NCBI GenBank assembly: GCA_051294375.1
Contig: CM119265.1
Coordinates: 12,950,124 to 13,014,123 of the forward strand
DNA length: 64,000 nucleotides
Origin: Paraspadella gotoi
Taxonomy: Eukaryota; Animalia; Chaetognatha
Direction: 5' to 3'
Under the pieces are notes generated by a model. That model did not search any database. It was not told the origin of the DNA and saw nothing but the letters and a program-made list of their open reading frames with translations. Positions 127 through 62,265 of the stretch are shown here, one piece after another. Every line of letters begins with the position of its first letter. Within the stretch, counting starts at the first letter, position 1. The translations under genes and the position numbers were made by a program.

Positions 127-440
127 ATGAAATTGGTACAACCAATATAAAAATTATCCATTCATTTAATAAATAAGCTATCTTACCCCTGACTTTGGAC
201 AGGCTTTGGTGGTTTAAGGCCTCCATCACTCTTACAAGATAATGACATAGCAGGTCCCTGCAAGCTTTCAATCAAGACTCTCTCACAGTCTCGTTTATTC
301 ACTCCCAGAGTACCTGGCTTTCCTATCAATGAAGTGGTATAATATTTCAAAGAATGTTTCAATTGTATGAAAAGACCACTCCCTTAAGTATTAGATCGGG
401 GAATACTTATTGTACTCCGCACTAGCATCAAAATACAAGG
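127..440 (+). repeat. Abundant dispersed repeat family with one fixed end ATGAAATTGGTACAACCAATAT
   Basis: Copies or fragments at about 127-440, 452-520, 1648-1672(-), 6310-6466(-), 12608-12630, 29101-29122(-), 29750-29795(-), 35437-35476(-), 55527-55550, 57150-57472(-), 59083-59268 and 60426-60570. All share the same terminus. Confidence 0.85.
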
Positions 441-746: not shown

Positions 747-3700
747 CATGCGCTGTAGATTTTGGGCGTGCTGCTGCATTATAAGCTCAGCGTAGTAATG
801 GTTCCCCTGTTGCCTGTAATACTCGGCCCATGCCAAGCTGTAGTCAGGTTGGCCGCCCGCTCCGGTCGTGGCTCCAGCCTGGGCATTCATGGTGGCTGGA
901 AATAAAACGCATTATATATATATATATATAAATAAAAATAAAAAAAATAAAAAAAAAACCGAGAAAATTTGGACAAATTTTAAACTTGGTAAAAACCTGG
1001 TTCAGCTGGGTTCGAGGTTTGCTGTCCTCCCCATTGGCCATTGGCTTGTTGTCCACCCCATTGGCCATTTGTCTGTTGTCCTCCCCACTGTCCACTGTTA
1101 ATTTGGCCGGTCCCATTGGCGGCCGGTGCTCCCCACTGGCCACCAGGTGCGGCCGGGCCGGAGGCCTGCATGTTACCCCATCCGCCGGCCGCCGGCGCCG
1201 CCATCTGTCCGGACCCCTGGGCTCCCTGACCCTGAGGACTGCCCCACATTCCAGGCCCACCCATTCCACCTTGCGGACCTTGTTGACCGGCGCCTGTAAA
1301 GCAAACAATATTAAAGGGAAAAATGCCTGTAATCAAACAATATTAAAGGGAAAAAATTGAAGGCAAAATGCAAGGAGATTCTTACCTCCGCCCATGGGCG
1401 AGGTTGCCAACCCAATCTTCTCAGAAATCATTCTTTGGGCTGTTTGAATCTGATCCCCGTTCCCGCGAATGATGAACAATTTCTCAGAAGGGTTGGGCGG
1501 TGGAGCACGACTCAACTCCACGTGGGCGCCGGACATGTTCTTTATTTCTCGGATAGTCTCGCCGCCTGGGATTAATCCGTGATACAAAATTAAAAAACGA
1601 TTAAAGTTTGAAAATATTAAGACGAGGAATATAAAACAAACATAACATTATATTGGTTGTACCAATTTCATAATATTATTACCTTTCCCAATGACGAGGC
1701 CACACTTGTCGGCCGGGACGGGGAACTGCACTTCGTCTTGATAACCACCTGCACCGCCGTTGACTTGGCCAGCGCCGCCCATCCAGCCACCTCCTTGACC
1801 GCCGCCCCCTTGCCGTCCGCCGGGACCGCGCCCGCCGTCCCTGGCTTTGGCTTGGGCGATCAGGTCCTGAATGATGCTGGTTGCCATTTGTATCGAATCA
1901 GGAGTACCGCTAATTGTGCATAGACGCTCGGGGGAAGTTCCTGAGAGAGCATAGTGGGCAAGGATTACGAGTTTACATTTACTACTGTTGTAATTCGAGA
2001 CTAAACTAAATTTAAACACGAACCTTGATCATCCTGTTTAAACTGTATTCTCGCGTCGCTCTCTTGTTGGATCTTTTTGATCATATCTCCGTTTTTGCCG
2101 ATAACGACTCCGACGCATGCGCGAGGAACGGGAATATCGACGGCACCTTTTCCTCCGCCGACGTACGCTCCACCAGCGCCACCGCCGTAACCGCCACCGC
2201 CACCGCCACCGCCGCGCCAGTTCAAACCCCCACCATTGGCTTTATCGTCGTTAATTAACTCTTGAACCATGTCTTTGACACGCTGAAGAATGAATAAAAA
2301 TTGTTACGAGAAGTAAAACCATGGGAAAAAGAATCTCCACCTCCAAAATAACAAAAATTAATAATTCGGTGATTTATTTTACTGCCCGTTGGAAAAAGGC
2401 AGTTCAGACATCAGTATGTTGGACATAAACTCTCGTTGTAATCCGTCGATCTTATTTACCTTTTGTAGAAGTGTTTAAAAATAATAACAAACTGTATTGT
2501 TAGTAAACAAATATCGATTGTTTATATTTTTAAAAACTTTTACAAAAGGTAAATAAGATCGACGGATTACGAGAATTTATGTCCAACAGCTAATCAGTAT
2601 TCAATGAGTTAAGGGGTAGTGGGTAAACGCTCCAGTTCAGTTTAACCTCAGGTATCAGCGGACTACAGAAAGCTAAAAGCCGACTGGGGTCAATGGGTTC
2701 AGTAGCATTTAGCACTCAAAAATAATTGGTCAACGCTCTGCAACTAACATGTTGTAATAAAATCTTAAACCTTTCTGATTTTTTTGATGTAATAAAAATT
2801 GATTTACGTTTATAGTTTTCGGATAATTTGTTAAAACAAAAACTTGCCCTTTAATCAGCGACGTTCACAAAGATTTCAATCAACATTAATTATTAGACAA
2901 AGGATTACGGCTTGCCAATAGTATAGAGTCCCGAGATGGTAGAATCACAAAATTATAGGTTTTTCAACAAAAATTGAAATAGAGTTCTTGGTAATAAAAT
3001 TAATAAGAAAAGAATTGAAAAAAAGGTAATCTCGTTTTGTTTTTGCGCTCTAAAGAAAAATATTTATGTAGTTCTTGTTTCTAAAATGACATGTAAAATA
3101 AAAAAAAACATCTATTTTACTAGTTTACTCGTTAACTAGTTTTTCTAGTTATGGTAATTAAGTCTCATCATCATTTTCCGTATGAGCATTTCGATAGTGA
3201 TCTAGTTAAAAACAAACGACACTTGGATAGAATATTATAGCACCAAAAGGTATTGCTAGTTAAAATTACAACTAGCCTAACTTAATATTTGAATTCACAT
3301 AATTTCAACAACAAATAATAAAAATATTTCCGAAATGCAATATAAAACCACGAGAGAAATTTACCAAAATTGTCATATCTTAGTATTTTAGATTATATAA
3401 AATATGTAGTCGGGCTTTGCATAGGTTCACCCCATCTATAAGCATGACACCTTCAGTCGTGACCCGGTGGCTCATTGAGAAAAGCCATCAGCTCATGACA
3501 GGGTAGGTACCGGGTTGGGATTGAACCCGGTACCTACCCTGCGGGAAGCGTGAGGACGGCCGTAAACCGCCTTGGGGGCGTGAAAAACCCTCAAGCCTGG
3601 TTCTAAGCCCAAGACCTGTTCCATGGCTGTTAGAGGGGTTAAAGAAGTTGCGGATAATCATCTTCAGCCCACTTAGCACTTTATCCACATATATCTTTAA

Positions 3701-5078: not shown

Positions 5079-6559
5079 CTAAACACCAAATTACTTTAGC
5101 TTACTTTATATTTTCTTTTCCTTTCATGCTATAGTTTCAGTTTTTAACCTCTTTAATCAACAAAAAAAAACTAAACCAAATGACTAGAAAATAATCCTGT
5201 AAATGGAAAGAATACAGAAATACAGAAAATTACTTTTCTTTAAAGAAAAACTTAATAAAAAAATTATAAAATACGTCAATTATTACAACCAAATTATGTC
5301 TTCAGTTGAGAAAAATGTTATTAATAATATTGGCAGCAAGGAAACCAACGTGTATGGTTTTTAACTTTTAATCTAGGCAAAAGCCAACATACAATCTTGG
5401 CCGGCGTCTCTGGAAACGGGACAGGAACGTTGGGCCGGCCTAGGAAATCATTTAACGAAAAAAAAAGGGCAGCCATTTCGATTTGCAGCCTATTGGCAGC
5501 CTGCCACGATGGCCGAGTGCTGCAGCCAACGAACTACGCACATAGCATCAATCTTTTTACATACCTTTGAGTTTAAACGAGAGGTTTGTAGGAACAAGGA
5601 CTAACAATGAAGGAATTATATTCGATGTTAATGCAAGAATTATAGATGAAGCGAAAAATAAGAAAAATTAATAGGAAAATTCAGAAGCCGCTGGATGGCT
5701 TATTTTCCCCACGAGCCACGTTTCTTCTCTCTGCCTGTCGAGAGACTGAAGGGAGTGAACAACGAATAGAAGAGAGAAATCCGCAGACAAAGCGCTGCAG
5801 CGACGAGGTTGAAACCTGCAGGCGAAGCGTCCAAAGCGCCTCGTCTTACAGGAAGAGGAAGAGTAAAACAAAATGTTCTTTGCCCAGAGAGGGAGCGTAG
5901 AAAAATAAAGACAGCAACGAATTGCGAAATGAACAACAGAATGTAAGGTTTATATGAACTACTTATGTGGATTTAAATAATTTCCATACTCAAACAATTT
6001 AAAATGTTGATAGTAACAGTGTTGAAATATTCTTAAATAAATATTTGTCACTATATGAGCAAATTTATTTTATTTTTCCTCATTTATGATTGTGAGATTG
6101 ATCAGATTAATTAGAAGCTTAGCTGACACAAACCGTAATATTAAATAAATTTACTTCCACTAAAAAAATCCCTTATGTTATGAAAACCCTTACATGAAAT
6201 TTTCAAAACTTATTAGAAATAAGAGTAGTCCAAGATTTTGAAATGTTCCCCCTGTTAGTGTAAATATATAAAAACTCAATTTGCATTGAATAATACAATA
6301 AAAAAAACCGACGCTGCTGATTGAAAGCTTGTAGAGACCTGCTACGTCATTATCTTATAAGAGTGATGAAGGCCCTAAACCACCAAAGCCTGTCCAAAGT
6401 CAGGGGCAAGATAGCTTATTTATTAAATGAATGGATAATTTTTATATTGGTTGTACCAATTTTATGACATGGACGACCATAATTAGCAAACGCTAGTTTT
6501 TTATACATTGATATTCATAAGAAGTGAAATCCTAGTAGGCGAAAGTAAAATATTACCAT

Positions 6560-10509: not shown

Positions 10510-13500
10510 ACATGTGCCTTTCTCGGTATTGGAAAGATTGGAGATGATACCGAAAAGAGGGAAGTATAAGTTATGGATGAAAAGCTCTTCCCGATTCCAG
10601 AGTAAATGATATTTATTATCCTAACTATAAGTATAAACCCTCTTAACCGTAAATACCTTTAACCCTAAACTACCCCTAAACCACACTTAACCCTTAACCA
10701 CTCTTAACCCCGGTAGGTGAAAGTAAAATTATGTCAAATATTTTGTAACACTGATAAAATGTTTGAGATAGTATTTGTATAAGCTTAAGATATTAAAATC
10801 AAAAGGGGCGGAGGTACAAAATTTTATTCTTGATATCTACTTTCAGGTAAAATATATATTTTTTTAAATCAATCTTAAATTATTTTTATGGATTCTGATA
10901 AAGCACAAAAAGTTAAAATGTAATTACAACTTTTAAAAATTCTTACGTTTTTTGCTCAAAATTAAGAAAAACTTATAAAATTATCGAAAGATAATGATGT
11001 TGATGAATTTTAACTGTTTTACTTATTTTTCTCCCACTTATAATCAAAATATGAAAAAAAATTATACTTTGTGTAGACAACTTTTTGCAAGCTACCTGAA
11101 TCTGATCTTAAAAATAAAAAAAATCATAAAATAAATTTTAGCCTTTCCTATCCATAAATATTAAAAAATTAATTACTAGGGTAAAGAGCCATATAGGTAT
11201 AGAGTCATATTAAATTTTTTTTGACTATCCTAATTTTAAAAAAAAATGTTTAAAATTTCGTTTGAACAGGTGCTCAATTAAAATTTTTGACCCAACTTAC
11301 CTTAATAGGCCACCCCCTACTTAAGACACTAATTTGATTTCCATGGACCAAAACTTTCTAAAATGGCACGAAGCACTCAGTCTCAGTCAGTGAAAGTAAA
11401 ATTTTGTCTAAAATAATTGAGAACAGAGAAAGAAAGAAGGACAGAAAGAAAGAGAGTGAAGATAAGTTCAGTCAGGCAAAGGTCAGCGACCTAAGACCTC
11501 AAGGAAGCCATTGTCCTCGTTTATCCATGTAGTGAAGGACCGGGTTCCACGCATCAGTCTTGACTAACGCGCCATCTCCCTGTCCAATACTGTACCGTCG
11601 AATCTCTAGTGCCTCGTATATCATATGCGAGTTTCTTTTTATTTTTCCCCAACTTTTTTTTAACAATGGAAGCGTTGGTAAAGTCAGGGATTTCAGGGAG
11701 CCTCACATCCACCATCGTTCAGTCAATCCCATTGGTTCCATCCACAGTCCTAACGACTCTGCGTTGGCAAAGCGAGACCGTCCTCGGATAACCGAGCCAG
11801 TTGCAGGCGGCACCACTGAGGGTCGGAAGGCACCACTGAGGGTCGGAAGCCAACATTGAGATGCCCCATCGCAATTGGCATTACAGGCAAACCCGGCTAT
11901 TACTTTATCCCCATTGTTTTTTTCAATAGCCTTGTGTTCATTTCATCTAGTTTTAAAGTTTCCAGATGTTTGACCAATGTAGACCGACTTATGATTTATC
12001 AGAACAAGGACATTGAAACTTATAAATGCCTTTTTTTAGTTCAAGGTCTGGCTTTGTACGGTTTTCATTGCAAAAGATGTCCTTGAGTTTAGCACCAGCT
12101 TTTGAAACAGCTCTTTCGTGAAAGTGCAATGTTGGGTATAAAGGGTAAGTGGCAAGAGTAAGGCCGAATGAGTGGCCGAATGACCCTCTTTTTGGTCTTA
12201 AGTCACTAACCTTAGTCTGACTGAACTTTTCTTCAATCTCTCTCTCTCTCTTCTTAATTATTTTGTTTTATTTTTTAATTTTTTTAAATTTTCCTAAGTC
12301 AAAATATATGTAATAAAAACAAATTGATTTTTGCCTTTAAACCGTATTTCTCCGTTTTAAAAATACATGTTTGTATTACAATTGTGCTGGTGTAAGCGAG
12401 GCACTTTTTATTTACTAGAATGACACTGAACTTTTAATTTTCAATTGTTCTGTTTAGGATGTCAAATTTACTCTCGCCGGAGGTAGTGGAGAATTTGAAT
12501 GAAGAGAGAGTTGCCTTGACACCAGGAATAAATGAACGGCACAATCAGTTCGATGAAGTGGTAAGGACGAGGGGGACAATCTTAAGAAGAATGGACGTCT
12601 CAAGAACTATGAAATCGGTACAACCAAAAATTATTTATTAATTCATGTATCCAAAAACTATTTTAAAAATTTTCTCTAACGGTTCTACTCTGATAAAATA
12701 TTTTCAATAAAACTTGAGCTGCAACTCTTAGTTTATTATTCTTTTTTATTATTTATTATTCTCTGTACTTTTTACTTGAGCGAGGTACACCACAACATAT
12801 TCGAGACTAGCGAATGCGTGACTGCGACAGTTTTTTTTAATAAAACTTTTGCTTACTTAAAAATCTAGGTTTAACATAAGAAAAAAATAGTTTCATAAAT
12901 TGGGCTTCCTGTTTTCAATCAGTTTTTACTAATAAATGTCGGATAACCAAGAAAAAAAATGTTTGCATTTATTTTGGATATTCGCAAGAGAAATCCAGTC
13001 ATTTATTTGGAATACCCAATAGAAAGGACTTAAGGAGTTGCTAATATAATAGTTTCTTAAATCTTAGATTGAATGATCCTATCTTGCCCCAAACTTTGGT
13101 CAAGCTTACAAGTTAAAGAAGCTGTTTGGTAATACCTTATGGCTAAAAATATCTGTATTTTTACTTAGAGTACGTGTTTTAAACGCTTATCGCCAAACCA
13201 ATCTTTGTGGATGACAAGTCCTCGACAGAGTGTCCTGCCAAGACTTCACGCATATGGGAATCAAAGACGTACATCTTCTGTAATGTCGGTTGGTGGGACC
13301 AGAACCGACATACGGTTAAGAATACCGTTCAAGCAACACATCGGAAATCTTGAATATATCAATCAGGTTCATTCTAGTCTATTTCTTAATCACTTTTCAC
13401 GTTTTAAAATCAAAACCGAATTCTTCACAACGAAAAGATTAAATGCTCAATAACACGTAGAATCTAGACATGATAAAATGAAACGCTTATCGATTCTAAA

Positions 13501-23633: not shown

Positions 23634-26600
23634 CTATGATCCAAATTCAATAGTGTCTTCCCCGATTCTTTTGTAAGTGTAATTTCCTTTTCCATCCATG
23701 TATAGAAAGAACTCGTGATAGTTCCACAGCGACTTCCGATGTGATACTGTAAACAACGTAATCCCGACCTGAATGGAAAAAAAAGTTATGTGATCTTTAC
23801 CACTCGTGTTTTGGTTAAATCTATATCTCTCTCTCTAAATTTAGTGTTGTGGTAGCACGACTTAAAGCTGTCTCACTGCTGTCCGTCCTCAGCCTCGTCT
23901 CAATGGCTGAGCAGAAGGGTAGAGTGATGAAAAGATTGAGCGATTGAACATTATTTTTTTACTGCCTATGGACATGTAATCAATGAATTTAAAATCCTTT
24001 AAAATTTTTTTAAAGCATAACAGTATAGTAAATTCAATTATTTATGTAGTAATATCCTTCTAAAATCATACAATTTTAAAATATTTTTATTTTATTTTAA
24101 AGAACAGATTTGGATTCGCCATTTTTCACCTTTCCCCCCCCCCATTTTAAATGTTGAAGACGACATAATTTTTAATAACATGTTTTATATTTTTGATTTA
24201 ACTTTTTATGAAGAATCTGAATCTTTATAAAAAGTTTTACTATTTTATAAGGATATTACTATAAATATATTGTATTTTACTATTCTGTTCCCGAGACTAT
24301 AATAACACCCACGCTTACAATTGCTTAAAGTATGAATATCACGCCTATGCCCTACTTCTCTGGTAATGCTCTAGATTCACCCACTCGCCCACTCTCAGGA
24401 TTGAGGCCCCTGGGGAGAAGTCTGGTGGGAGGATCCTGTGGCAGCACAACTTAAAGCTGCCTCACTGTTGTACGTCCTCAGCCTCGTCTCAATTGCTGAG
24501 CAGGCTAAATCCTAAAGAGTCCTGGGTTAAATCCTCGGATATCCCAGTTCTGGCTTAAATGTGACGGAGCCGGTTTAAACATGCCAGTGACCGGAGGCAG
24601 TCACTGAGGGTCCGCAGCCCCTATGCCAGTTGGTGAGATACCCTGCGCCCCGTATATCTTCCCGTTGCCATAGTATCTTCTTTCTTGCCACTTAAGAATC
24701 GTGAAGACGAAAGAGAAAATATGTCGAAATGGAAAACTGGGCGTTACCTCTTTGCAATAAGCGTACATATAACCCTCAACGTCAACGGAAACTGCCGAGG
24801 TACATTCGTCGAGAATTGCGAACTGGGGTTTGTGATAAAAAAGGCGAGCCATGGCAATACGTTGCTTCTCTCCTGTTGCAAAACATTTGATTTTAAATGA
24901 AATATCACAATTTTATAAATGAAATAAAACTAAAGGCTACAATCAAGAAAGAAAAGACTTACCTCCAGAAAGAACGTCCATCCAATCACGCTCAGTGTCC
25001 CACCCAGTAATGTCTTCTCTGTCCAATAGGTACCTAAGTTGCACTTTATCCAACAAATCCGCCAGGTCCGCGTCGCAAAGTCCCTTCGACATCACGTCGT
25101 TGACGGAGTCAGGATAAATAACCTGATCTCGCAAAGTGCCGATAGGCATGTACGGTCGTTGTGGAATGTAGAAAAGTTTCTTCTTGTCCGGTTTTGTCAG
25201 CCTACAAAAGTTTTTATGTAGTTATATCCTGGGCTTACTAGGTCAGGTGATAATCATAATGATTTGGCGGTATTTTAATCACAGGGGGAAAAATGAGCAG
25301 GAAGACACAAAAAATTATAACTAACCTTCCGCCAAATAATGGCCATAATTCTCCAAGAATCCTAAACAGTGAGCTCTTCCCACAGCCATTAGGACCACAG
25401 ATAATGACGTTGTGTCCCGAAGTGACTTCAAAATTCATTGATTTGACTAGCATATCGCCGTTTGGCGTGACCAGAGGCACACCTTCGAATCGGATAACGT
25501 GATCACGATGGAGGATTTTTCCGGATCCAGGAATTAGCGGCGAAATCTGATACGCGATTAAGGAAATGAAAAATAACTTACTGGATAATGAAAAGAGCAT
25601 TTTTTATTTGTAAAATAAATTCTTCCTGGTCGGTGATTTTTTTTCTGCTTCTTATGAGCACAAATGTAAAAAAAAAATTTCCGAAAAAAAGACCGATGGT
25701 TTTTCGAATATTACACAACCACCCTTAACCTTAACCAGTAACAACCTCTAACCCTAACTACCCCTAACCTAAACCACCCTTAACCTTAACCAACCTTAAC
25801 CTTGACTAACCCTTGACCTTAACGACCCCTAACCTTGAATAACCCTAAACTTAACCAGACTTTACTTTTTTTTCCCTGTAGTATCAAACCACAGTAATGA
25901 TATATGGGAATAGAAAAATAACCGATCGGCTCGGTTCCTGTCGTCGAAAGTAAAATGGTGTATTTTATTGAAACAAACCATTTGGAAAGTATTCTTCCTA
26001 TCGCCACCAGCGTGGTTCTCTAACTCGCGAGCTGTTGCGGTCATTGTCCTTTCGTATTTCCCCCGATTTAAGTCGTTGAGAACGTCCACAAGTGAGCTGA
26101 CTCGAGCCGTGTAACTGGGAAGAGTTTGTTGTGACATATGATGTGACAAATGCAAATTGTTTTAATTATTGCTACTTCGTACTAACCCAGCAAGCTTGGT
26201 CATTTCACGACCAGCCAAAACTAATCTCCCGATGGCTTCGGCAAGTCGAATCAACATACGACCGCTGAGGTAATATTCTTCCAACCTTGTGGACAATTGT
26301 AGCAAAATCAAATAATGATAAGATGTAATTAATAAATTATAAATAAATATTTAATAATATAATATAATATTTAACTCGCCTTTCTTTGTGCGTCTTGTCA
26401 AAATGCTTTCCGCTGTAGGCAAGAAAAGGTCGAGAAACGACAAAAAAACCAACTACAGTTGCTAAGTATTTCGCAACTATGTTGTCCACCATTCCCATTG
26501 AGAATTTGAAAGTAATAACGTCACGAAGATGATCTACTAGTCGTTTAAACACCTGCATCAGGGTTATGTGCTCCCTTTTGTTACCTGCAACAGAATCATA

Positions 26601-34400: not shown

Positions 34401-36974
34401 TTATTTCTCCTGCCTTGTTTGATAATAAAATCTTTATCAAATGCCAGAAGAAAATATTAACGAGTTCTTGAGATGCAAAGCTGTCGGAATCGTAAATTTT
34501 ATTTTAAGCGATATTTTTGCCTAACTAACGGCTTTAATAGCCTAATTAGAATATTTTTAGACTTATGTAGAGTTTGAAAATACTTTTTTATGAAAATATC
34601 TTTTGGAAATATATATCTAGAATGAAAATAAAAATACCATTTGACTGTTATAATTTTCAAAGACGTCCATATTTTTTTAAATTGTAACTAGGACAGTAAA
34701 CAACCAGAATCCCCAGTACAGTAATAATTCTCCATATACTCCATAGTATGACCCCCCTTAGTTAGCAAACTACTAATTTTATTTTCAAACATTGATCAGT
34801 CTGTTCAATTAATATAAATTTCATGATAAGTACCTGATCATGTGAGCATAAACATCGTTTTCGGAGGATATGGTTGCTTGTGCCAAAAAATGAAGTAGCT
34901 GCGTCAAGAGGATTCATTGAAATTATTTTTTAAATAACTTGCTTATTAAAACGTGACCGTAATTCTGAGTGTTCACGTGACTACACAATTATGAAACATT
35001 CACAAGAAGCATTTACCGATACATTATCAGTCTGCTGATTCTGTAATTATGAATTATGCCGCATTGAATTTCTGGTCATATGATTACTTTTTTTGGGTCA
35101 TTATGTGACTGCACAACTGCTAAATTTGACCTGTTCACCAAAAAAAAAACCTTTATAAAGTAATCAATACTCAAAATATACAAACAAAAAAAATATTAAA
35201 TGCATGGTGGACTAAAATCCGCCAACCGTTCATCAGCGGCCATTGGTGCCAGAGGCAAGTCATTCGCCTCCCAACCCAAAGGTCCGGGGTTCTTGCCCGG
35301 TGGTCGCCTAGCAGTTAAGAGGGGCGGGGCGCTTAACCCGCCTATAACACGGTGTTACAGCCTGATCCGAAGCTCAGGGACTGCTTATATTGAACGGTTC
35401 TGTCACTAACACATAACAATAATTACTGTCTCTTCAAATGAATGGATAATTTTTATATTGGTTGTACCAATTTCATAGTATACTCACTACTCACTACTAA
35501 ATATATCGCATTCGCAATCTTAAGACTTACCGTGTCATTATTTTCTGCCTTGTGATTCGGATCGGCACCGAAAAATAATAAAAGCTTAATCAATTCGAGA
35601 TCCTGTTCCGTCAAAGCTAAATTGAGAGCCGCTTCCCTCCCCCACCCAACGGAGTTGGGATCAGCACCATCGACTAAGAGGCGTTCAACAAGGGCAGGCC
35701 CTGCAGGCAATCCGCGTAACAAAGGGTAAGTGAACTCTTCGTGTGGCCCGTCGGGAACATTAAGTGGAGCCGAAACGGGCGCCCGCAAAAGAGTTTCGAT
35801 CATTTCTGCGTCCCTATTTCGTGCCACAAGTCGATGCCACTCATCCAACTCTTCTAATTTTCGCTTTCGTTCGGGGAAGACGTATTTGTCGCGAGTCCAC
35901 GAGCTCTCGCGTATCGACTCGAGGAGGAGTTCGATTGCTTGGGACAAAGGCAAGATGTGCCAGTCAAAAGGTGCATTGGCGCCCCCGTCTGAAGAAAAGG
36001 CAAAGGTCTTGAGGTCGGCACCGGCGTCGACCAGGGACTGGAGGCAGAGAATTCTCCGGTACATAATAGCGACGTGGACGGGTTGAAGACCGCAGGCGCT
36101 TGTTTTGTTGCTGACGTCGGCGCCATTGGTAATCAACTTATCGACGAGACGGTGGTACCCCAGCATCGACGCAATGTGAAGAGGATACGTGCTCGCCATT
36201 AGGTTCATCATTTTCGGGTTATTCAATAACGACTCAAACTGCCCCATTGTTTGACACCGGCGAGCGGAGTCGAGAAGAAGTTTTACACCGTCTTCCTTCC
36301 TGAAATTGGTAGGACGAGACATATTTTAAGAACTTGATGAACTTTTTGTTTGTAAAGAGCTTGAGACACTTTTACAAAGCTATTACCAAAAAAATATATC
36401 TCACCTGCATCTACAGACTCTAATTGGGCCTAATGGTCCGATATCCTTCACTTTCAAAGAGAGAAGGAAAGCTCGAATGAGATCGTCGCTCTGCTGCTCG
36501 CTCTGTACGCTGCTAGGCGGCGAAGGTTGGTCCGTTTCCATGGCATCTGTTGAACTGGTCAAGAAGCAGTATATAACGATTTGCATTCACGTTGCGCGTG
36601 AGCTGTATCTGTTTGTGATATCGCTATCATCGATGATATAAAATCGAGAAAACAAATCACCTTACAGTTCCAGCGGTTCGGGGGTAAATTCTTTCTCTCC
36701 ATCCCAAGCTACCAGGATAAAATCCGGCTAAAGTGTCTATTTCAAAGCCAACTTCATAAAATTGCCAGCAGGAACAGGTAATGCTACTGCTGGTACCATA
36801 AGGTATCCGTCCATGAGAAATGCCGTAACTAGTCTCACCATTGGAGATGGCGCTAAGAAGAAATCGATGATTAGCAAATTGAGAGTTTTCAATAAGTTTT
36901 GACTCAACGGCTTCCAGGTCGCCAGTGACTAACGCCTCGAAAAAAGAAGATTCTTCTTCGACGGAGATGGTCAT
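28472..36974 (-). CDS. Ankyrin repeat and SOCS box-containing protein (ASB family)
   Basis: Multiple ankyrin repeats (YPLHIASMLGYHRLVDKLITNGADV, GETALMDA, TALHSACWCN, TPLYVACHRGHFEVARLLIESG) and a terminal SOCS box PPTLATIVSNWLR...NLPLPVQLKKRL. Exon structure is only partly resolved. Confidence 0.85.
29565..29713. mobile_element. Helentron/DINE-like non-autonomous element with telomere-like tract
   Basis: Inverted ends ttttactttcgccgaccg / cggtcggcgaaagtaaaa enclose degenerate (TTAGGG)-like repeats. Related ends occur at about 10625-10730, 31748, 37126/38460, 44930, 51465-51560 and 54790. The superfamily assignment is an inference. Confidence 0.6.
30801..34757. mobile_element. Nested transposon cluster inside an outer TIR element (ASB intron)
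   Basis: Outer TIRs of about 80 bp (30801-30880 / 34681-34757). Inner palindromic element 31867-32971 (TAGGGC..GCCCTA), element 32980-33562 (TAAGGCGTAG..CTACGCCTTA; flanks CTAACTAC/CTAACTAT), and 33607-33955, which is repeated at about 60576-61178. Confidence 0.75.
32430..32472 (-). ncRNA. Minimal type I hammerhead-like motif (degenerate)
   Basis: Minus strand AACG CTGAAGA A GGCTT gcaacta AAGCC AAAAC ATGT C CGTT. Stem I, stem II and palindromic stem III are present, but catalytic G12 is A. Confidence 0.55.
35204..35437 (+). mobile_element. tRNA-Gly-derived SINE-like element fused to a twister-like ribozyme
   Basis: 73-nt tRNA-like head at 35236-35308 (acceptor GCGGCCA/TGGTCGC, T-stem CCGGG/CCCGG, TCGCCTCCCA anticodon region), followed 2 nt later by a twister motif. 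Second copy at 57526-57759(-). Confidence 0.8.
35311..35384 (+). ncRNA. Type-P5 twister-ribozyme-like motif
   Basis: GCAGT taa G[A]GG GG CGG GGCGCT T^AA CCC GC CTATAACA cgg TGTTACAG CCTGA TCCGAAGC TCAGG g ACTGC. The conserved GA is GG in this copy. Confidence 0.8.
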
Positions 36975-41500: not shown

Positions 41501-41574
41501 TTGCTTTCCGGAACTACGGATCCGGCGGTAGGCTTGCTACCGGTGGTTTAACCGGCCCGTCACTCTTTTTGCAA
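41501..41574 (-). ncRNA. Type-P5 twister-ribozyme-like motif
   Basis: Minus strand TTGC aaaaa G[A]GT GA CGG GCCGGT T^AA ACC AC CGGTAG caagc CTACCG CCGGA TCCGTAGT TCCGG aaa GCAA. T2 is AC/GT (compensatory vs GC/GC). It lies in a GC-rich island at about 41390-41580. Confidence 0.82.
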
Positions 41575-46800: not shown

Positions 46801-49800
46801 ATTAAGGGGTGAACTTAAGTAATATTTTGCCTGATTAACTGAGCAAAGTGTTACTGAAATTGCCTAGGTAAAGAAATGATTTTTCTTAATTAAGATAAGC
46901 AATTTCTAAATCAAAATATTTTGCTTATATTTATTTTTAAAGATAAATAAAACAATATATTTTCTTTTGTTTTAATTTCGTTCTCAACTATATTTTAAAT
47001 TTGTTTATTACTATATTTTTAAGCCCATAAATACTTTTCCCAGATGGCATGAAATATGAGTATCAGCATTAAGTATGTAAACTACTTGGCTACTACCAGA
47101 CCCAGAACCAATAAAATTATTAAAGAAGATTAATTCATTGATAAATAATTATACTATTGCAACAGCCGGGTTGCCTGTGATGCCCATTGGGATGGGGGCA
47201 TCTCACTGTTGGCTTTGGGGCTTCCGACCCTCAGTGACGCCTCCAGTCACTGGCGCCGGTTACCCTAGGACGGTCTCGCTTTGCCAACGCAGAGGGAAGT
47301 CGTTAGGACTGGATGGAACACTACGCCTGGGATGGTGTGTTCCCCCTCTGAGCCAATGGATTTGGCTGATCGATGGTGGACGTGAGGCGGTGTAAATATA
47401 CCGCCACAGGATCTCCGGGCCAAGACATCACTCAGGTTCCTCAAGCCTGAGAGGTGTCTGACAAGACTGTTACCATAGTGGGAGAGAGAGAGCGCGAGTT
47501 GTGGGGGCATAGGCGTTTGTCGTAGCGTACCCCAGGGGCATAGGCGATTTGTTCGTAGGCGTACCCTGAGAAGGTTGCGTGTTCGATAGTAGGGCTCAGC
47601 ACTTATGGCAACAGCCGAGTTGCCTGTGATCCTCATTGGGATGGGGCATCTCACTGTTGGCTTTGGGGGCTTCCGACCCTCAGTGACGCCTCCAGTCACT
47701 GGCGCTGTTACCCTAGGACGGTCTCGCTTTGCCAACGCAGAGGGAAGTCGTTAGGACTGGATGGAACACTACGCCTGGAATGGTGTGTTCCCCCTCTGAG
47801 CCTATGGATTTGGCTGATCGATGGTGGACGTGAGGTGGTGTGAATATACCGCCACAATACTTAAAAATGTATAAATTTTCGTTTGAGCATGTACTCATAA
47901 ATTTTTGACTCGCCCCATTGTGTGGGACTACCCCTACTAGTACTTTGATCTCCAAGAGATTAAAAGACATTTCATTCTCCAGTTATGAAGAAGTACAAAC
48001 ACGCCAAGGAAGATTTTTATTGTGTCTCCTGGACGACTTTGTCCGTTCCCAATCCAGAAGACGAAAGGAGAGAAAAAATCAACATCCTCGCTGCCGCGGG
48101 CCAGCAGGCAATTATTTATCTTCAATCCTTGATTTACCCAGATTGCAGCAAACCGATAATGTCAATACAATGCTTGCCAAAAACCAATTACTAAGTAATT
48201 GAGTACAATTCTCTAGGGGGACATTAAACTGCTTCAACCGGATCAACTTCTTTGCTACGCTCAAATGAAAGGCCACAAGAAGCACGTAAACTGTTTGCTC
48301 TTCCACCCCCACAATCCTTCCCACCTCTTCTCTGGCGCCAACGACAAAACTGTTATGTTGTGGGACATCGGAATTCCCGTGCTTCCGACGTTTAAAACGA
48401 AGTTCAAAGCGTTGATCAGTTTTCGAGTTCCTGTTTCTGGTCCTTGCGACGTTCTCAATTTGCACTTTCATGACGACAGGTAAAGCATGATCTGGGCAAA
48501 GTGGAAATCTTCAATGAGCAAAAACAGAAGGCAACGCATCAAAGACTGGCGTACTAACTTATTTTTGCTCTACATTAATACCGATTGATGCTAAGGAGCA
48601 CATTTCAAGTGTCACATGAGTTGCTCTGACCGAGGCAATCCACATGGTTTCCATCAGGCACAACTGTTTTCTAATTCTTTAGTTTATTCTATTTGTTTGG
48701 TCGTAGGTACATCGTTGCGTCCACGGAGAGCCATTGCATTATCTGGGATTCGTCAGATGCCGAAACCTGCCGCAAAAGTGTTGGAAAGTCGGCCACGAAA
48801 ACAACGAAAACCCCGAGAAACAGAAAGCATCTCCTCGAACTTGAGCTTCCGTTCATGCACACAACTTCAAGTGTTATGGACGGTTTAGTGGGTAATTGCT
48901 TTACGTAGTTACTTATTGCGGAGTTCCTGTTCAAAATATCCTTAACTATCGAATTATTTATAATTTTGATAACTCTTGCTTACTAAATATTTTTAACTAA
49001 CCTTCCTTTCTTCCTACCCCGTGTCCGTTCGCGAGTGACACCAAAAAAATATTTTCTATACTTTAAATATTTAATAAATATAATTCATAAGTATATCATT
49101 AGTTGGAGAACTACTGGACGTTTTTTATGTACGAGTTTCATTTTGTGTTTAATTCATTTACTATTCTTTGTTTAATTTTTTATCTAACACAGTAAAATTG
49201 GCGAAAAAAGACCATTTTAAGCGTGTTCTTGATTGAATTTTAAAAAAAAATTTTCATCATAAGAAATTCTTATTAATGGTCTAATCAACGGAGTATATGA
49301 ATTATCGTAATGTTGAGTAACTTTTGAGTAATTATTTTTTATTTTTTTAATTTTAAATCTTAAGTTTTTTTTATACAATTTGTCCAATTAAAAAAAAATG
49401 CTGTCCCGAGCATATTCTTGACTGTTTTAAATAATTATTTCATATCTTAAGGATTCCCAGATAATTTTTAATTTAATGGTATAAATGAATTTTACTAATT
49501 TTAATTAATTAATAAGTAATTAATTTTTTTTAAGGATTCAGTTTTTTACTGAAGATGAAATTGGATGACTATTAAAGAAAGGTTGTTTTAATAAGTTAAC
49601 ACAAAATTTTTAATTCTTAATGAAAATTAAAATTATAAACGGTCCAGTACTTTGCTATAGAATAAAAAAAAAAATTTAAAAAATATTCATCAAATGAGAA
49701 ATGGTACGCATTTTTTTTTTGGTGTCACTCGCGAACGGACACGGGGTAGTCTCAGGAACCAAGTACGTACTACATTGATTTAATTTTTCTTTGCAGGCTT

Positions 49801-54900: not shown

Positions 54901-57900
54901 ACGACGACGATGGCGACGACGACAATTATGCCGATAACGATTGACTTGATTTATTGATTGACTAATAAATAAATTGATTGATTGATTGAATAATTAATTG
55001 ATTATTTTTTTAAAAAATACTAATTAAATTTTTTTAAAAATTTTTAACAAAATTATTCATCGCGAATTTCCTTTCGTTTCGTTGTGTTTGAATTAGTAGT
55101 AGAAGTTTGAATTTGTTTATGTACCAATAAAATCGTTGTTGTAAACAAATTCAAACTTCTTCTACTAACAAAATTATTATATTAGTTATAAAAATCCAAA
55201 TTATAAGCATATTTATTAAATGTCTATCATTATCTATCAAGCATAAGCTTAAATTTGAGATCTCTCACAACTTTTTATGATTTTTCATTATCGAATTATT
55301 TATAAAAATTATAATTTTTTATTTATTATTATTTATTTATTTATTAATTAGTACTTCTGAACGAATTATTTTTTAAAAATATGGATACAAATATGCTCTC
55401 AAAATGCAGTTCTACTTATTAGGCCTCGTTAATTAATAATAATTAAATTATAAAAAATTTATTATTAAAAGTTAATTCATTATATTTATTAATATATTTT
55501 ATATTATATATCAAATATTGAATGAAATGAAATTGGTACAACCAATATAATATAATATAATAATGAAATTTTTTAAAAATTTTATTAAATAATAAAAATA
55601 TAATTAGTATTAAATGCTGGATATGAGTTTGAATTAAAGCAATTAGCTAATATAATTACCCGTTATTTTATTTTAGATTAAGTTTTAATTAAGCATATAT
55701 TAAAAAAAATAAAATTAATAATTTTTTAAAATGTCGTTTTAATGCTTAATAAGTAGAATGCATTTTGAGAACATATTTGTACCTATATTTTTAAAAAGTA
55801 ATCCAATTTTAAATACTAATTAATTTTTTAATATCAAAAATTATAATTTTTATTAATAATTCAATAACAAAAATTTGCAGAAAGTTGGTGATGATAACCA
55901 AATGATGGATGCGATGAAAGTCATTCATTGATGCGATGATAGTCATTTATTGACGCGATGAGTCATTCATCGTAAATAAAAAACAAATGTGTTTGAGTGA
56001 GAGAGAGTCAATTAATTATTTTATTAATTAATACATCTTGCATTTACATTTAATATAAAAAGAAAAAGAAGCATAATCAATTAGTGAAACAGGTTTTTTG
56101 TTTTTTCTCTTTAAACTAATTTCCACTCAGACGATTCCATCGAAATTTAATTTCCAGCTCAATCACAGACTTTCCTACCCACATACAAATTTTTAATTCA
56201 ATCGCCCCATATACTCATCAGTAATTGGCGTTAAAAGTTAAGGGGGGGACGAACAAACGGACAGACATCGTTTTTTTTGGCATATTTTATCATTATTTGA
56301 TGTTCTGATTTAAGTCACTTACCGACAAGCTTTTGGGATGGGACATAAGGACCGACAAAGTGAATTATAGAGCCGAGATGTGCTGTGAGATGTCTTTGTC
56401 TAACTTAGACTAAGATTTAATTTGATGTATTGTTCACCTCATTATGTACTTAATTTCAAACAAAAGCATTTTTGATTTTAACACAACAAAAACGTAAAAT
56501 ATTAAATATTTTTATTTTGAACCCTTTATTATTAAATTTAGACCGAATTTTATTCTCATAATTAGCAGAAAAATCTATGATTAATGTAACGAATTTCATG
56601 ATAATATAATAAATATTTTCAGATTAATTGGACGACCAACGTTCTTTCCTCGAATAATTTACCTCACCATTTCTTAAATATCTCGCAGGTGACATCGTAT
56701 TGAGAAGAACGCCTCGAGGAGACCACGAAAATTTGTATCGAAGAGGATTTTCTAGTTTTGAAAAATGTACAAAAACCATTAAAAATTTTCAGATGACATT
56801 TTTGATTGCACCGGCATATGCCTTTGTGTTCTGCTCGTATGTATTGGTAAAGAAACAACAATCGGCGAGTTCAAGATGTTGGCGTTGCGCCGCAGTATCA
56901 CCCTTTTATGGACGGTGGACACATTTCCCGATAAGTATGTATCTACCCAAATCTAAAATATATGGTTGTTCACTAATCTTTAAAGCTTTAACTAAAATAA
57001 GCAAATATGTCTTGAAATATGCCGCACTGACTTTCTGATAACATGCCTTGTTACAGAAGTATAAAGCATATAAACAAAAATTACTTACTGATTCGTTACC
57101 CCGTGAGCCAGAAAGGATGGCACTAATAAAAGCGCTCCCATTCCTCTATGTATTAGATCCTTGTATTTTGATGCTAGTGCGGAGTACATATAGTATTCTC
57201 CGATCTAATACTTCAGGGAGTGGTCTTTTCATACAATTGAAACATTCTTTGAAATATTATACCACTTCATTGATAAGGAAGCCAGGTTCACTGGGAGTGA
57301 ATAAACAAGTCTGTGACAGAGGCTTGATTAAAAGCTTGCAGAAACCCGTTATGTTATTATCTTGCAAGTGTGATGGAGGCCTTAAACCACCAAAGCCTGT
57401 CCAAAGTCAGGGACAAGATAGCTTATTTATTAAATGGAAGGATAATTTTTCTATTGGTTGTACCAATTTCATACATTCAATTAGTTAAAAAAATCATTGA
57501 TGTTTTATATGTATCAAATGACATATTGAAGAGACAGTAATTATTGTTATGTGTTAGTGACAGAACCGTTCAATATAAGCAGTCCCTGAGCTTTGGATCA
57601 GGCTGTAACACCATGTTACAGGCAGGTTAAGCGCCCCGTCCCTCTTAACTGCAAGGCGACCACCGGGCGAGAACCCCGGACCTTTGGGTTGGGAGGCGAA
57701 TGACTTGCCTCCGGCATCAATGGCCGCTGACGAACGGTTGGTGGATTTTAGTCCACCATAATATGATAAATTCAATTTTATGAAGTAGTTTCTAATTTTT
57801 ACTTTGAGCCATCCGTTTAGACTCTCGGGGTACCAGTCTGCCAAGTATTAACAAAAATTAATGAGTTCTTTATAAATTATGCCGATTGGATTTCTGATCA

Positions 57901-60900
57901 TTTGATCGCGTTTTTATGATGCATTTTTGAATATTACAATTATTATAGTACCTTTCTATTAAATATAAACGCAATTGATGAATATTATTTCTGAATCTTT
58001 AATAAAAAAATTTTGTACTCGATAATCATACTATCTCGCATAAAATTATTATTGTTATTTGACTAAAATCAATTTTTTGTTATCAATCTGATAAGCCGAT
58101 CCGACTAAAAAAATCTTAAAAGCATAAGGATCGTCGCAATAGCATAAGAAAAATCTGGATTGACGACAAATTTTAATACTAAAAAAAAAAAAAAAAAATT
58201 TGAGAAAAGAAAATTAAATTATAAACGAAGAAAAATTCTATTTTGCGATTGTCAATAAAAAAAAATAATAAAGTACGGAAGAAAATTCGAGTTACAGTTT
58301 CTGAAAAATAGCAAAATGGTAACATGCACGAATACGATGCCTAATTTTACGAGTTCAATCCTATTTAAATTTTTTTTTTAAATAAAAACGCAGAGAGAGA
58401 GAGAGAGAAAAAAAAGAAATCAAAAGGCAGCAGCAGAAGCAGCAGAAGCAGCAGGAGAAAAGAGAGAAAAAGAATAAACCCCTGCAAAGCCAGCTGCAGG
58501 CTCGTTTTTTTCCCCTATGATTATGAATCAGTGACTAGGGAAAAAAGAGAGGGAGAGAGACATGTAATTAAAAGAGAAAAGAGAGAGAGAAAGAAATATG
58601 AAAAAAGAGAAAAAATTTGTTTTGATAAAACGTAAACAAAACATATTTAATAACTGTCCAGACTCAATTTTAAGCACATCGATGATGAGAAGCTGTATAT
58701 AAATTTTCAGCTTCATACACCCAAATTTAATCATAAAAAAGGCGATCTATAATTTGGAACGCCGACGACAACAACGACGCCACTTATGGGCAAAAGCGAT
58801 ACAATATCGTCGCAAACGCTTAGCGATTGCGACGATAAAAATATAAGAAAAAGCGATCTATCATTTAGAACACCGACGACGACACCGACGCCATTTATTG
58901 GGACGATCGTAACAAAATCGTCGCGCAAGCGATTGCGAATTAAAAGATGAAGCGATTGGTCCAAATCCTATTAAAATCGAGCAAAGCGTTCAAAAGTTAT
59001 AGGACGTCAGTTGATTGGTACTAAAAATCTGATAAAAGCAGTTGAGTGATTACTTACCCAAAGTTACTTTCAAAGCTTTTTCATGAAATTGGTACAACCA
59101 ATATAAAAATTATCCATTCATTTAATAAATAAGCTATCTTGCCCCTGACTTTGGACAGGCTTTGGTGGTTTAAGGCCTCCATCACTCTTACAAGATAATG
59201 ACATAGCAGGTCCCTGCAAGCTTTCAATCAAGACTCTCTCACAGTCTCGTTTATTCACTCCTAGAGTGATATTTTAGTTTTTTCTGTATGGCATCTCATG
59301 TTGAAACAGACTAATATAAACTCACAATTATATTAAAAATAAATTACTTAATTTTTGTGATTATTATTTCGTTTCGTTGGTGTATTTGATATTAGAAGAC
59401 GTTTGAAAGTTTATACAACAATTTTAACAGTTGGTTAAACTAACCTAAATCAATCTTGAATCGATTTCACTCAATTCATTCACTTGACTTTGTTCACTCT
59501 GATTTTCGTTCACTTCCGGTCGTATTTGTCTGCTCACTACTCGAATCTTTACCAAACTTGAAGAAAATTAATTTTCTTTTTTTTTCTTCTGTTTTTTAGG
59601 GCTGTCTCCAAGGGTGTAGGAGAGGCTGTGACTGCTGTCCAGTCTGCCCTAGCCCCCCTTGAAATAAAAATCGTTGTATGAACTTTCAAACGTCTTTTAT
59701 TATTAATTTTTGTAATTTTAATACAATTTTTCAAATTTTTTTAAAAAATACTATATTTACTATTATTATTTAACAAAATTTTTTATTATAGAAAAGTAAA
59801 GCAAATTTATTGCCAACCCTTTCATATGTTTAATTCCATTATGATTTTGTCAATTCTACAGGGTAGTGAATCAAAACTTAGAATAGTATTTACCATCAGT
59901 TTTTATAGGCAAAAAGTTATTGCATGTCTTTTTATAATACACTAAAATAATCACTGCTTTTTTTCTTTCTGATACAGGTTTTTTTTTCCTCATGCAACTA
60001 CAATACGCTGCGCTACTAAAAAGATTGTAACATTGGTTGTATTTGCTCTGCGCCGGTTTAAAGCTTAAAACTACTAATAAATATTTTAATGTTCCCTAGC
60101 AGTATGTTATATTATAAAGAAGGCTATTAAGAATAAGAATAACTACTATGTTAAGTCGGGAAAGCGTGCGCTCAAGCTCGAGTCGATTAAAGGAAAATTT
60201 TAAAGTGAACAAATGAAAAACTCCATTTAGAAATATTTACTGGCACATCTTATTTTTTCTATCTTATGGCCATGAAACTGCCACAGTTTAACAAGACCTA
60301 TTTTAAACTTAATTAATAAAAATAATTTAAGATGCTATAAATTTTCTTTTCTTAAGTTATCAGACAAAAAAAAATACTTCCTTATATTATAGCTACTATG
60401 CAAAAATCCATTGCTGCAGTCTATTATGAAATTGGTACAACCAATATAAAAATTATCCATCCATTTAATAAATAAGCAATCTTGTCCCTGACTTTGGACA
60501 GGCTTTGGTGGTTTAAGGCCTCCATCACACTTGCAAGATAATAACATCAAGGGTTTCTGCAAGCTTTTTATTAGCGGTAGCCAACCAAATTCAAATTTTA
60601 ATGGGAACAGCATTAAACTAATCCATTATTGGTATTAATTATTGTATTAAAATATTTTTTTGCAAAAATGTTCCGAACCATGAGTAATTCGCTATTTAAT
60701 ATTATTATATTGCTAAATAATGTCAACATTTTTTTGTGGATATTTTAAGTTTTTTTAATTGATTCTGATAGAGCTTAAAAAGTTAACCAAAAAATATAAT
60801 TACAACTTTTTAAAATTTTGATGTTTTATTACTAAAAATTAGTAAAAACTGCTAAAATCATCGGATGATGATGATGATGATTTTTTAAGGTTTTTCTCAA

Positions 60901-62265
60901 TTTAAACCCACTTATCATCAAAATATTGAAAAAAGAATTATACTTTGTGTAGATAACTTTTTATAAGCTATTTGAATCTGCTTTTAAAAATAAAAAATTC
61001 AAAAAAAAATTTTTGACATTCGCTATCTATAAATAAATATTAAAAAATTAATTACTAATGCTTCTTGCCATTTTAGAAAATTTTGCTCCATTGAAAGTTT
61101 TCTCAGAAATGTATGAAGTTTCATTTGGAAATGTTCCCAAATCAAACTTCTGACTCATCCCATTGACGAAGTTTGGCTCTATTTTAATCAAACCAATCTC
61201 ACAGACTTGTTTATTCACTCCCAGTGCTTATATTGTTCTGAGATTCCATTTCGTGACATGTATAAAGAGTCAATACTCTTGGGGTTATTATGCATGGCTG
61301 TAACAAAGGGCATTATTATATACAGCGGGAAAAAAAAAATTTCAGCTGAACCAACATTTTAATTTTTGACTAAATGATTTTTGGGCTTGATAATATCCAC
61401 ATCTAATTCTCCTAAGCTGTGCTAAGTAGGGCGTTTTAAATGGGGAGACTCATATGACTTTCAACCAAAATATCAATGGCGTAGGATAAACTGTCTACGA
61501 GCAGTGGCTCAATCTTTCAGAAGCGTTTATGAAGAGCAGCTTTTGGGTGCTGTGGCTAGAGTGGTTTTTGCAGCAGTGCTTGTCGCATTGCATTAATAGT
61601 TAGAACTAGGTCTGGTTAAGTATCTTCAATTAAATTTTTTTCTTTAAATGCACCCGATACGTCACAAAATAAAAAAAGTGATATGGATTTTCTATGTTTT
61701 GAATCACTACCCTATATATTGTAAGCATCAGTCAGAAAAAGAAGTGTCATCAAAGCTAACCTTTGGAAATCATTTTTTCCCAATTCAGCTTTGAGACTGC
61801 CTGAACCAATTCAAATTTTTCTTGCACAAATCTATAGCTCTTTAAAAGCGCTATACTTTTCATATAAATTTTCTTAAAATTATTAAAGTCTAAAGTTAAT
61901 AAGTGGCTACTTTTTTTTTGCGCAGCAGTATAAAAATACGGCAACAAGTGGTGCATTAAAATAATACCCGAGTCTTCCGGCGCGGGAAGGCCTCCGCAGT
62001 AAGAAATGAACTTAGTAATTTTTCCTGCATTGCTTTTGACAGCATCGAAACAATCCATGGCAATCAAGTGGTCAATGCCTGGATCAACTCCAACCTAATA
62101 TTTTTTTATATCAGCATAGTGTAAGCTACTTACGACATAAATATATTAAGGAAAACAAACATTAACCTCGTTCATGCAAGTTATATCAGCCGCCAAAGCT
62201 GCTCGGTGAAGTTTTCGCAGTTCGTCAGAAGTATATGACGCTGTAACCATGTTTGTCTGTTTTTG
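51905..62265 (-). CDS. AASS: Alpha-aminoadipic semialdehyde synthase, saccharopine dehydrogenase domain (5' part lies beyond the window)
   Basis: NMVTASY..., MNE|[17 protein letters not shown]...[12 protein letters not shown]|[18 protein letters not shown] (exon about 56663-56751), [17 protein letters not shown]|[33 protein letters not shown]. Confidence 0.95.
53534..54233. mobile_element. Tc1/mariner-type MITE, second copy
   Basis: Same TIRs and TA flanks as 49017-49746, with collinear internal sequence. Confidence 0.88.
54506..54548 (-). ncRNA. Minimal type I hammerhead-like motif
   Basis: Minus strand CTGATGA A GGCTT acattg AAGCT GAAAC ATGT C. The core is intact and stem III is palindromic, but stem I is poorly paired. 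An inverted degenerate partner lies at 54650-54692(+). Confidence 0.6.
57526..57759 (-). mobile_element. Second copy of the tRNA-Gly head + twister element
   Basis: Collinear reverse complement of 35204-35437. Confidence 0.8.
57579..57652 (-). ncRNA. Type-P5 twister-ribozyme-like motif
   Basis: GCAGT taa G[A]GG GA CGG GGCGCT T^AA CCT GC CTGTAACA tgg TGTTACAG CCTGA TCCAAAGC TCAGG g ACTGC. GA is intact; there is one T1 mismatch (CCA vs CGG). Confidence 0.8.

Follow-up and report, generated by a model that had tools for sequence, protein, structure and literature searches.

Why retroelements carry self-cleaving ribozymes, and how genomes bear many intronic copies of them, is the question raised by a 64-kb stretch of the Paraspadella gotoi genome (hereafter the window, 64,000 nt). 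An earlier note on this DNA had described twister ribozymes in which the linker between T1' and the cleavage motif U^AA is short, self-complementary and different in sequence from family to family, and had suggested that P1 forms in trans between two copies. We examined the window cores, the elements that carry them and their relatives in other genomes. Papers given by PMC or bioRxiv number are cited here for the portions of their text that were available.

Twister cores and their repeat families

Thirteen type-P5 twister cores, collected as descriptor matches and as copies placed by hand, are present in the window and fall into six repeat families: A (5 copies), B (1), C (1), D (2), E (1) and F (3) (Table 1). 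A descriptor blind to the linker finds 10 cores in the window, versus 3 matches in 10 shuffled windows. All 13 cores follow the type-P5 order, P5'-P2'-GA-T1'-linker-U^AA-P2-T2-(P3)-P4/L4-P5, with U^AA retained in every core, GA in 12 of 13 and a P4 of 3–5 bp likewise in 12 of 13. T1 forms all three of its pairs in 11 of 13 copies and occurs in four sequence variants, and in families A and E, T2 reads AC/GT instead of GC/GC. A P5 helix of 4–9 bp is possible in all 13 cores, the short ones perhaps by chance, while P2 pairs, with a bulge, in all six aligned copies and is weak in the F copies. In families A, B, D and E, P2 sets a 3-nt strand against a 4-nt strand with one base bulged, and this bulge model pairs 18/18 cells. 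A C-like remnant at about 16.2 kb has lost its core and was left out of the count.

In Rfam, four of the five family-A cores match Twister-P5 (RF02684) below threshold, at about 26 bits (best 25.8) versus a cut-off of 37.6 (E 0.32–0.35); the remaining cores of the window are not among the Rfam matches, and no core reaches the gathering score. The Rfam model expects a longer P1. Assignment to the twister class rests on the covariation of T1 and T2, despite the Rfam scores under the cut-off; on this sequence basis, the cores appear to be type-P5 twisters, and self-cleavage at U^A is predicted. No hammerhead is found in the window by Rfam, the twister standing in its place. In one public run (X1), 25,056 contigs map to the A+D stretch and 473 to C, numbers that indicate high copy number without being a copy count.

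Table 1. Positions of P1 linkers and carrier elements in the window
Feature	Position	Strand	Remarks
Type-P5 core, family C	24550..24629	+	P5, P2, T1, T2, P3 and P4 all pair; top descriptor score
P1 linker, family C, AGCCGGTT	24568..24575	+	8 nt, self-complementary with two G-U pairs; predicted cut between 24576 and 24577
P1 linker, family B, CGGCCG	3557..3562	+	antisense in intron of FUBP-like gene
P1 linker, family D, GGCGCT	35328..35333	+	copy with conserved GA changed to GG
P1 linker, family D, GGCGCT	57630..57635	-	copy with one T1 mismatch
P1 linker, family E, GCCGGT	41551..41556	-	
P1 linker, F 5' LTR, TCCTAGGG	47711..47718	-	
P1 linker, F 3' LTR, TCCTAGGG	47263..47270	-	
P1 linker, decayed F-like copy, TCCTCGGA	11781..11788	+	centre not complementary; P4 disrupted by duplication
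P1 linker, family A	217..222	-	in 325-nt unit; partial tandem copy precedes
P1 linker, family A, decayed copy	6370..6375	+	outer pair and T1 broken
P1 linker, family A	57377..57382	+	antisense in intron
P1 linker, family A, intact core	59173..59178	-	sense in intron
P1 linker, family A, intact core	60516..60521	-	sense, same intron as the 59173..59178 copy
Element F	47155..47856	-	two LTRs of about 254 nt, 448 nt apart; target duplication GTAT; antisense in intron of LRWD1-like gene
Element C, 3' LTR-like repeat	24437..24672	+	TG...TA ends; B-box-like motif upstream of twister; loose ends
Element C, 5' LTR remnant	23848..23914	+	antisense in last intron of ABCD-type transporter gene; flanks match 3/4 as target duplication
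Family D solo LTR	35203..35436	+	4-bp target duplication; B-box-like motif; GA changed to GG
Family D solo LTR	57527..57760	-	4-bp target duplication; sense in intron

Elements that carry the twisters

Element F consists of a 4-bp duplication, an LTR, a 194-nt spacer, a second LTR and again the 4-bp duplication, with a twister in each LTR. Element C is built alike, with a truncated first LTR, and both D copies are 234-nt solo LTRs. The target duplications agree at 4/4 letters in F and in both D copies and at 3/4 in C, and a B-box-like motif lies upstream of the ribozyme in families B, C and D. Compared by eye, the internal start of F agrees with the primer site of one fungal Helenus element at 9/12 letters; a purine-rich run before the 3' LTR is present in C and weak in F. 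No Pfam domain is detected in nine scanned ORFs of the C, D and F elements, and ARAGORN finds no tRNA. By this anatomy, families C, D and F look like TRIMs or solo LTRs. Family A has a fixed 3' end and ragged 5' ends, with one partial tandem of 325 nt, an arrangement that resembles Penelope-type insertion; no RT remnant of this family came to light in the window, either with a profile built from 151 RT C-termini or by protein search (best Naiad RT, E 0.16). Two cores lie on one transcript unit in F only: in C and in one A copy the first repeat is truncated and coreless, and the other copies are solo. Taken together, the twister repeats are likely high-copy, non-coding, non-autonomous retroelements.

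Short fragments of the family-A 3' end with its terminal hairpin occur at 35436–35477, 29747–29799 and 55517–55550, one of them adjoining the D solo LTR at 35.2 kb. A long inverted repeat with a B-box-like loop stands just upstream of the family B twister (3499–3541), where a weak Rfam miRNA match is probably due to chance.

The P1 linker is self-complementary to its centre

The linker strings of the earlier note are all found where it had placed them, and its description of them is borne out and extended to six families and 13 cores. The sixth family, absent from that note, is family A, whose linker reads AGGCCT in four of its five copies and AGGCCC in one decayed copy. Between T1' and U^AA, the linker measures 6 or 8 nt in 13/13 cores, with no intermediate lengths, and it is self-complementary from end to end (G-U allowed) in 11 of 13, both exceptions being decayed copies with other damage. 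In every core the palindrome occupies the gap exactly, in the register of P1 and with no loop letters on either side.

Since a short hairpin of any kind resembles a palindrome in part, the test is the centre of the linker. There, the innermost P1 pair would link two adjacent bases, which is impossible in cis, and the next pair would close a loop of 2 nt. With one linker taken per family, both of these innermost pairs are Watson-Crick in 6/6 families. When letters are shuffled within linkers, 2 of 200,000 trials give two Watson-Crick inner pairs in every family, and 526 of 200,000 give a Watson-Crick innermost pair in every family; pooled shuffles with G-U allowed give 14 and 1,860, respectively. 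These counts overstate significance, since the families are related. The six copies of the 6-nt class from A, B, D and E align gap-free over 24 columns, and all three P1 pairs change on both sides, the innermost being C-G in three copies and G-C in the other three, with 36/36 cells paired. The covariation score of this alignment is reached by 0/500 shuffles, which is indicative for such a small set of related families. An automatic whole-core alignment was misregistered and was excluded from the results. The palindromes are centred on GGCC, CCGG, GCGC or CTAG in the window, to which relatives in metagenomes (described below) add ACGT and CATG.

The earlier note had held that a cis hairpin would need a loop of about 2 nt. 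This is not so: a stem of 1–2 bp under a 4-nt loop is possible, but its predicted folding energy is +2.7 to +6.0 kcal/mol, versus -8.3 to -11.0 kcal/mol for the self-duplex. The idea that the palindromes act as family-specific pairing 'barcodes' holds only in part: the self-duplex is best in every family, but A and B, as well as C and E, cross-pair nearly as well.

Variation within families C, A and D

Variation was read from contigs of four public runs mapped to the window cores, as per-position shares rather than haplotypes. In family C, A>T at 24568 accounts for 78–98% of depth and T>A at 24575 for 85–98% across the four runs. The majority form of the family therefore differs from the window copy at both ends of the outer P1 pair, the co-occurrence of the two changes being inferred from their shares. 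A minor G>A at 24569 replaces a G-U pair by A-U, and a T>C at 24575, at 1–10% of depth, would break the outer pair. The only change in the four central letters to reach 2% is a C>T at a CpG, and it does so in a single run. For families A and D, no P1 position appears among the best 40 of 69 variants by support in the four runs.

Control twisters and relatives in metagenomes

Linker-blind pattern scans of metagenome and viral sequences returned at least 281 loci, the metagenome part comprising at least 120, mostly chance matches. A core filter passed 29 matches. Seven low-GC matches were set aside as animal-type, and five without a P1 hairpin were dropped from the controls (linkers of 2, 3, 7, 9 and 16 nt, none a 6–8-nt palindrome); with locus L036 added by hand, this left 18 prokaryote or phage controls, three of whose linkers were added by further viral scans. 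No 6–8-nt linker occurs among the core-filter passers of the at least 120 metagenome loci listed. The 18 control linkers are hairpins of 15–25 nt with loops of 3–5 nt, and the loop is self-complementary in only one of them. A self-complementary centre thus distinguishes 6/6 window families from 1/18 controls (Fisher p 5e-5). In one viral contig (L276, GC 0.38), about 500 nt separate two P5 twisters; their P1 hairpins are AU-rich, and one of the hairpins is self-complementary to its centre.

Among the metagenome matches listed, nine loci (L026, L035, L039, L043, L078, L103, L111, L129 and L131) are low-GC repeats of the family-A design from about five lineages, probably from animal hosts. Their linkers measure 20–29 nt and hold no canonical P1 but one to three palindromes at its place. 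All nine have a palindrome of 6–10 nt, always GGCC-centred, one or two letters past T1', and in five of nine a perfect 8-mer palindrome centred on CTAG, ACGT or CATG abuts U^AA, the other four being one or two changes away. In shuffles, one palindrome of at least 6 nt arises somewhere in 24–34% and two in 3–6%. The linkers of these loci look like a duplicated palindrome-plus-UAA unit, and L026 has three palindrome-like stretches with the family-A hexamer inside the middle one.

In L129 (1–301), the palindromic P5 twister lies about 80 nt past the stop of a reverse transcriptase ORF. Relatives of protein P0121, to which this ORF is identical, carry a GIY-YIG domain at the N-terminus, a DKA motif and an RT at the C-terminus. 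As this combination is the Naiad signature of PMC8557442, the L129 ORF is read as Naiad-type.

Probable pairing between copies and its alternatives

For one repeated sequence to supply both strands of an inter-copy helix, it has to be palindromic. A transcript with two LTRs or with tandem copies would let the palindrome that precedes U^AA in one copy pair with its identical counterpart downstream of T1' in the next copy. Each ribozyme would then combine its 5' half with the 3' half of its partner, giving a nested 'double twister' whose P1, P2 and P5 helices would all be formed between copies. By analogy with dimeric hammerheads, cuts at both sites would release a unit-length RNA open to circularisation, and single units or circles would serve less well as substrates. 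The earlier proposal of P1 pairing in trans draws support from compensatory changes at pairs that a hairpin cannot make, from the control twisters and from palindromes at the same place in other genomes. That the copies pair with one another for some function is a conclusion we draw with considerable confidence; that cleavage benefits from this pairing is a weaker conclusion, towards which the evidence leans. We accordingly favour, with some reserve, the reading in which type-P5 twisters fold in high-copy repeats and a palindromic P1 likely forms between copies, making paired copies cut faster. Changes at both ends of the outer pair in family C, with few at the centre, and the two twisters on the transcript unit of F also speak for it. 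A stronger version, in which a widespread animal twister lineage has converged on the double-hammerhead design and cleaves efficiently only as a strand-swapped pair, leaving lone insertions largely intact, is offered tentatively, and we doubt it somewhat more than we believe it.

Folding models are indecisive on dimer dependence. Constrained folds of element F give -229.6 kcal/mol for the swapped form versus -225.3 kcal/mol for two separate cores, a gain of 4.3 kcal/mol that is within model error; the P1 duplex and the swapped P5 are both absent from the unconstrained fold (-250.5 kcal/mol), and two-molecule folds place the palindrome duplex in 3/6 cores. Against an explanation by pair cutting also stand the solo or truncated state of most window copies, the T>C variant of family C at 24575 and the 20–29-nt linkers with two palindromes in the metagenome loci. 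In hammerheads, stem III belongs to the core junction; the P1 of twisters, in contrast, is reported to be dispensable, and a palindromic P1 therefore does not by itself imply dimer dependence. Palindromic stem III hammerheads act as dimers (PMC6765202), and in the axolotl hammerhead, monomers cleave 6–22% in an hour and dimers much more (PMC7229834). For twisters, cutting without P1 is described as proceeding at almost the wild-type rate (PMC5408937) and as inefficient (PMC8501958); in a natural type-P1 library, to which a closed short linker is external, neither P1 length nor P1 stability tracked cleavage (PMC11662667), and none of these accounts describes a closed linker of 6–8 nt. The reports of a dispensable P1 (PMC5408937, PMC11662667) speak against the further proposal of the earlier note, that only two-LTR or multimeric transcripts would cleave.

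A different explanation is that monomers cut on their own and that the palindrome is kept, at a dispensable P1, as an RNA–RNA pairing signal of the retroelement, for dimer packaging, for template switching or as a sticky 3' end on the upstream cleavage product. It would account for the same covariation, it agrees with the reported dispensability of P1 (PMC5408937, PMC11662667), and Ty1 offers a parallel in needing self-complementary PAL1/PAL2 for RNA dimers and mobility (PMC6844567). As read from the sequence, the palindrome would fall at the 3' end of the upstream product. The metagenome loci bear on this explanation in two ways: their 20–29-nt two-palindrome linkers, like the three-palindrome ones, do not allow a simple swapped P1, and the form with two palindromes has slack for a monomer, which favours a pairing role apart from catalysis; yet the perfect 8-mer that abuts U^AA in five of the nine speaks against it, as does the exact filling of the gap, in P1 register, in all 13 window cores. 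LTR-like and Penelope-like elements are expected to differ in their copying routes, and the presence of the palindrome in both also argues against a signal of this kind. We regard this explanation as unlikely, although it deserves serious consideration.

The palindromes might instead be relics or minimal cis hairpins, in which the hairpin top was lost and the arms now abut, a stem of 1–2 bp and a 4-nt loop being enough. Deletion of a hairpin tip would yield a perfect palindrome of any sequence, the outer-pair changes of family C fit a cis stem equally well, and P1 is tolerant to change (PMC11662667). However, families A, B, D and E are gap-free at one 6-nt length with three fully compensated centres, so repeated deletions to the same length would be required, and neither the lack of intermediate lengths among the 13 cores, nor the lack of A or D P1 positions among the best 40 of 69 variants, nor the instability of the cis hairpins is in keeping with such an origin, which we consider improbable. 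That the palindromes are chance products, short GC-rich words being often palindromic and the families sharing ancestry, or DNA sites for a dimeric protein is very hard to credit in view of the shuffle counts and control twisters in the first case and, in the second, of six different centres, which argue against one sequence-specific protein.

Twister copies in host introns

Exons in the window belong to FUBP-like, CPSF2, ABCD-type, ankyrin, phytochelatin synthase, LRWD1-like and saccharopine dehydrogenase genes of a compact invertebrate genome; the best named relatives of CPSF2 are about 64–76% identical and come from several invertebrate phyla. Eight elements lie in introns, five antisense and three sense (p 0.73). 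A saccharopine dehydrogenase intron of about 5.2 kb (56790–61960, minus strand) holds four twister cores, three of them in sense orientation: one of these has a mismatch in T1, and the other two are intact A cores at a distance of 1,343 nt. The suggestion of the earlier note that solo intronic copies spare the host pre-mRNA has mixed support. Sense copies are tolerated, but it is not clear that their solo state is the cause, since the two intact A cores could pair with each other. The window also contains a phytochelatin synthase gene in an animal genome (39048–40091, minus strand; Pfam E 9e-83) and a tandem array with a 22-nt unit (44673–44848).

Relation to known ribozymes and retroelements

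Twister permutations have been described (PMC5408937 and PMC10085705). The window cores share the core order of the type-P5 twister (RF02684), with T1 and T2 co-varying between window families, and differ from it in a P1 that is a 6–8-nt palindrome rather than the 15–25-nt hairpin of the 18 prokaryote or phage linkers, in the 3-nt P2 strand facing a bulge in four families, and in an Rfam score that is below the cut-off or absent. The dimeric hammerheads of Penelope-like elements and of salamander satellites and retrozymes (PMC6765202, PMC7229834, PMC7761336) likewise have a short palindrome as core-adjacent helix within a tandem or terminal repeat, but they are an unrelated ribozyme class. Plant LTR retrozymes (PMC7761336) and Helenus TRIMs (PMC10886601) are likewise short non-coding two- or solo-LTR elements with 4-bp target duplications; a ribozyme in the LTR is common to the retrozymes and the window elements, and a B-box-like LTR motif to Helenus and the window elements. 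The window elements differ from plant retrozymes in their animal host and in carrying a twister instead of a type III hammerhead. The available text of the Helenus paper (PMC10886601) makes no mention of a twister, and a six-motif search of Helenus consensus sequences gave no twister core among the matches listed (26 of 42 for the commonest motif).

Among animal retroelements, the Perere-3/RTE elements of Schistosoma mansoni likewise carry a twister with a weak P1 (PMC8501958). These twisters are type-P1, lie at the 5' end of the element and gain P1 pairs from target-site letters, whereas those of the window are type-P5 and repeat-internal, with a closed palindromic linker. PMC7761336 refers to truncated twisters of RTE elements as unpublished findings. 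For Naiad Penelope-like elements, the available part of PMC8557442 reports no canonical hammerhead and leaves the twister unmentioned; L129 carries a related palindromic P5 twister.

A full-text search of the literature outside subscription journals returned neither a twister that is dimeric or has a palindromic P1 nor an LTR that carries a twister, and the available portions of PMC10085705, PMC8782182 and bioRxiv 2022.07.19.500677 likewise contain neither. Roth et al. 2014 or the Rfam seeds may already hold short-P1 eukaryotic P5 examples. Judged from sequence, the palindromic P1 is a real feature and marks a variant within the twister class; the proposed dimer mechanism is attractive.

That P1 is kept palindromic in several families points to selection for pairing between copies in a second ribozyme class, unrelated to the hammerhead. 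Since the P1 of twisters is reported to be dispensable, this case separates dimerisation as a catalytic switch from dimerisation as a replication signal, two roles that are confounded in hammerheads. Under strict dimer dependence, two-LTR TRIMs and the partial tandems of Naiads would be processed, and unit circles and lone insertions would stay largely intact. If the mechanism holds, these would be the first dimer-dependent twisters, would provide animals with LTR retrozymes and would supply Naiads with a ribozyme that they were thought to lack.
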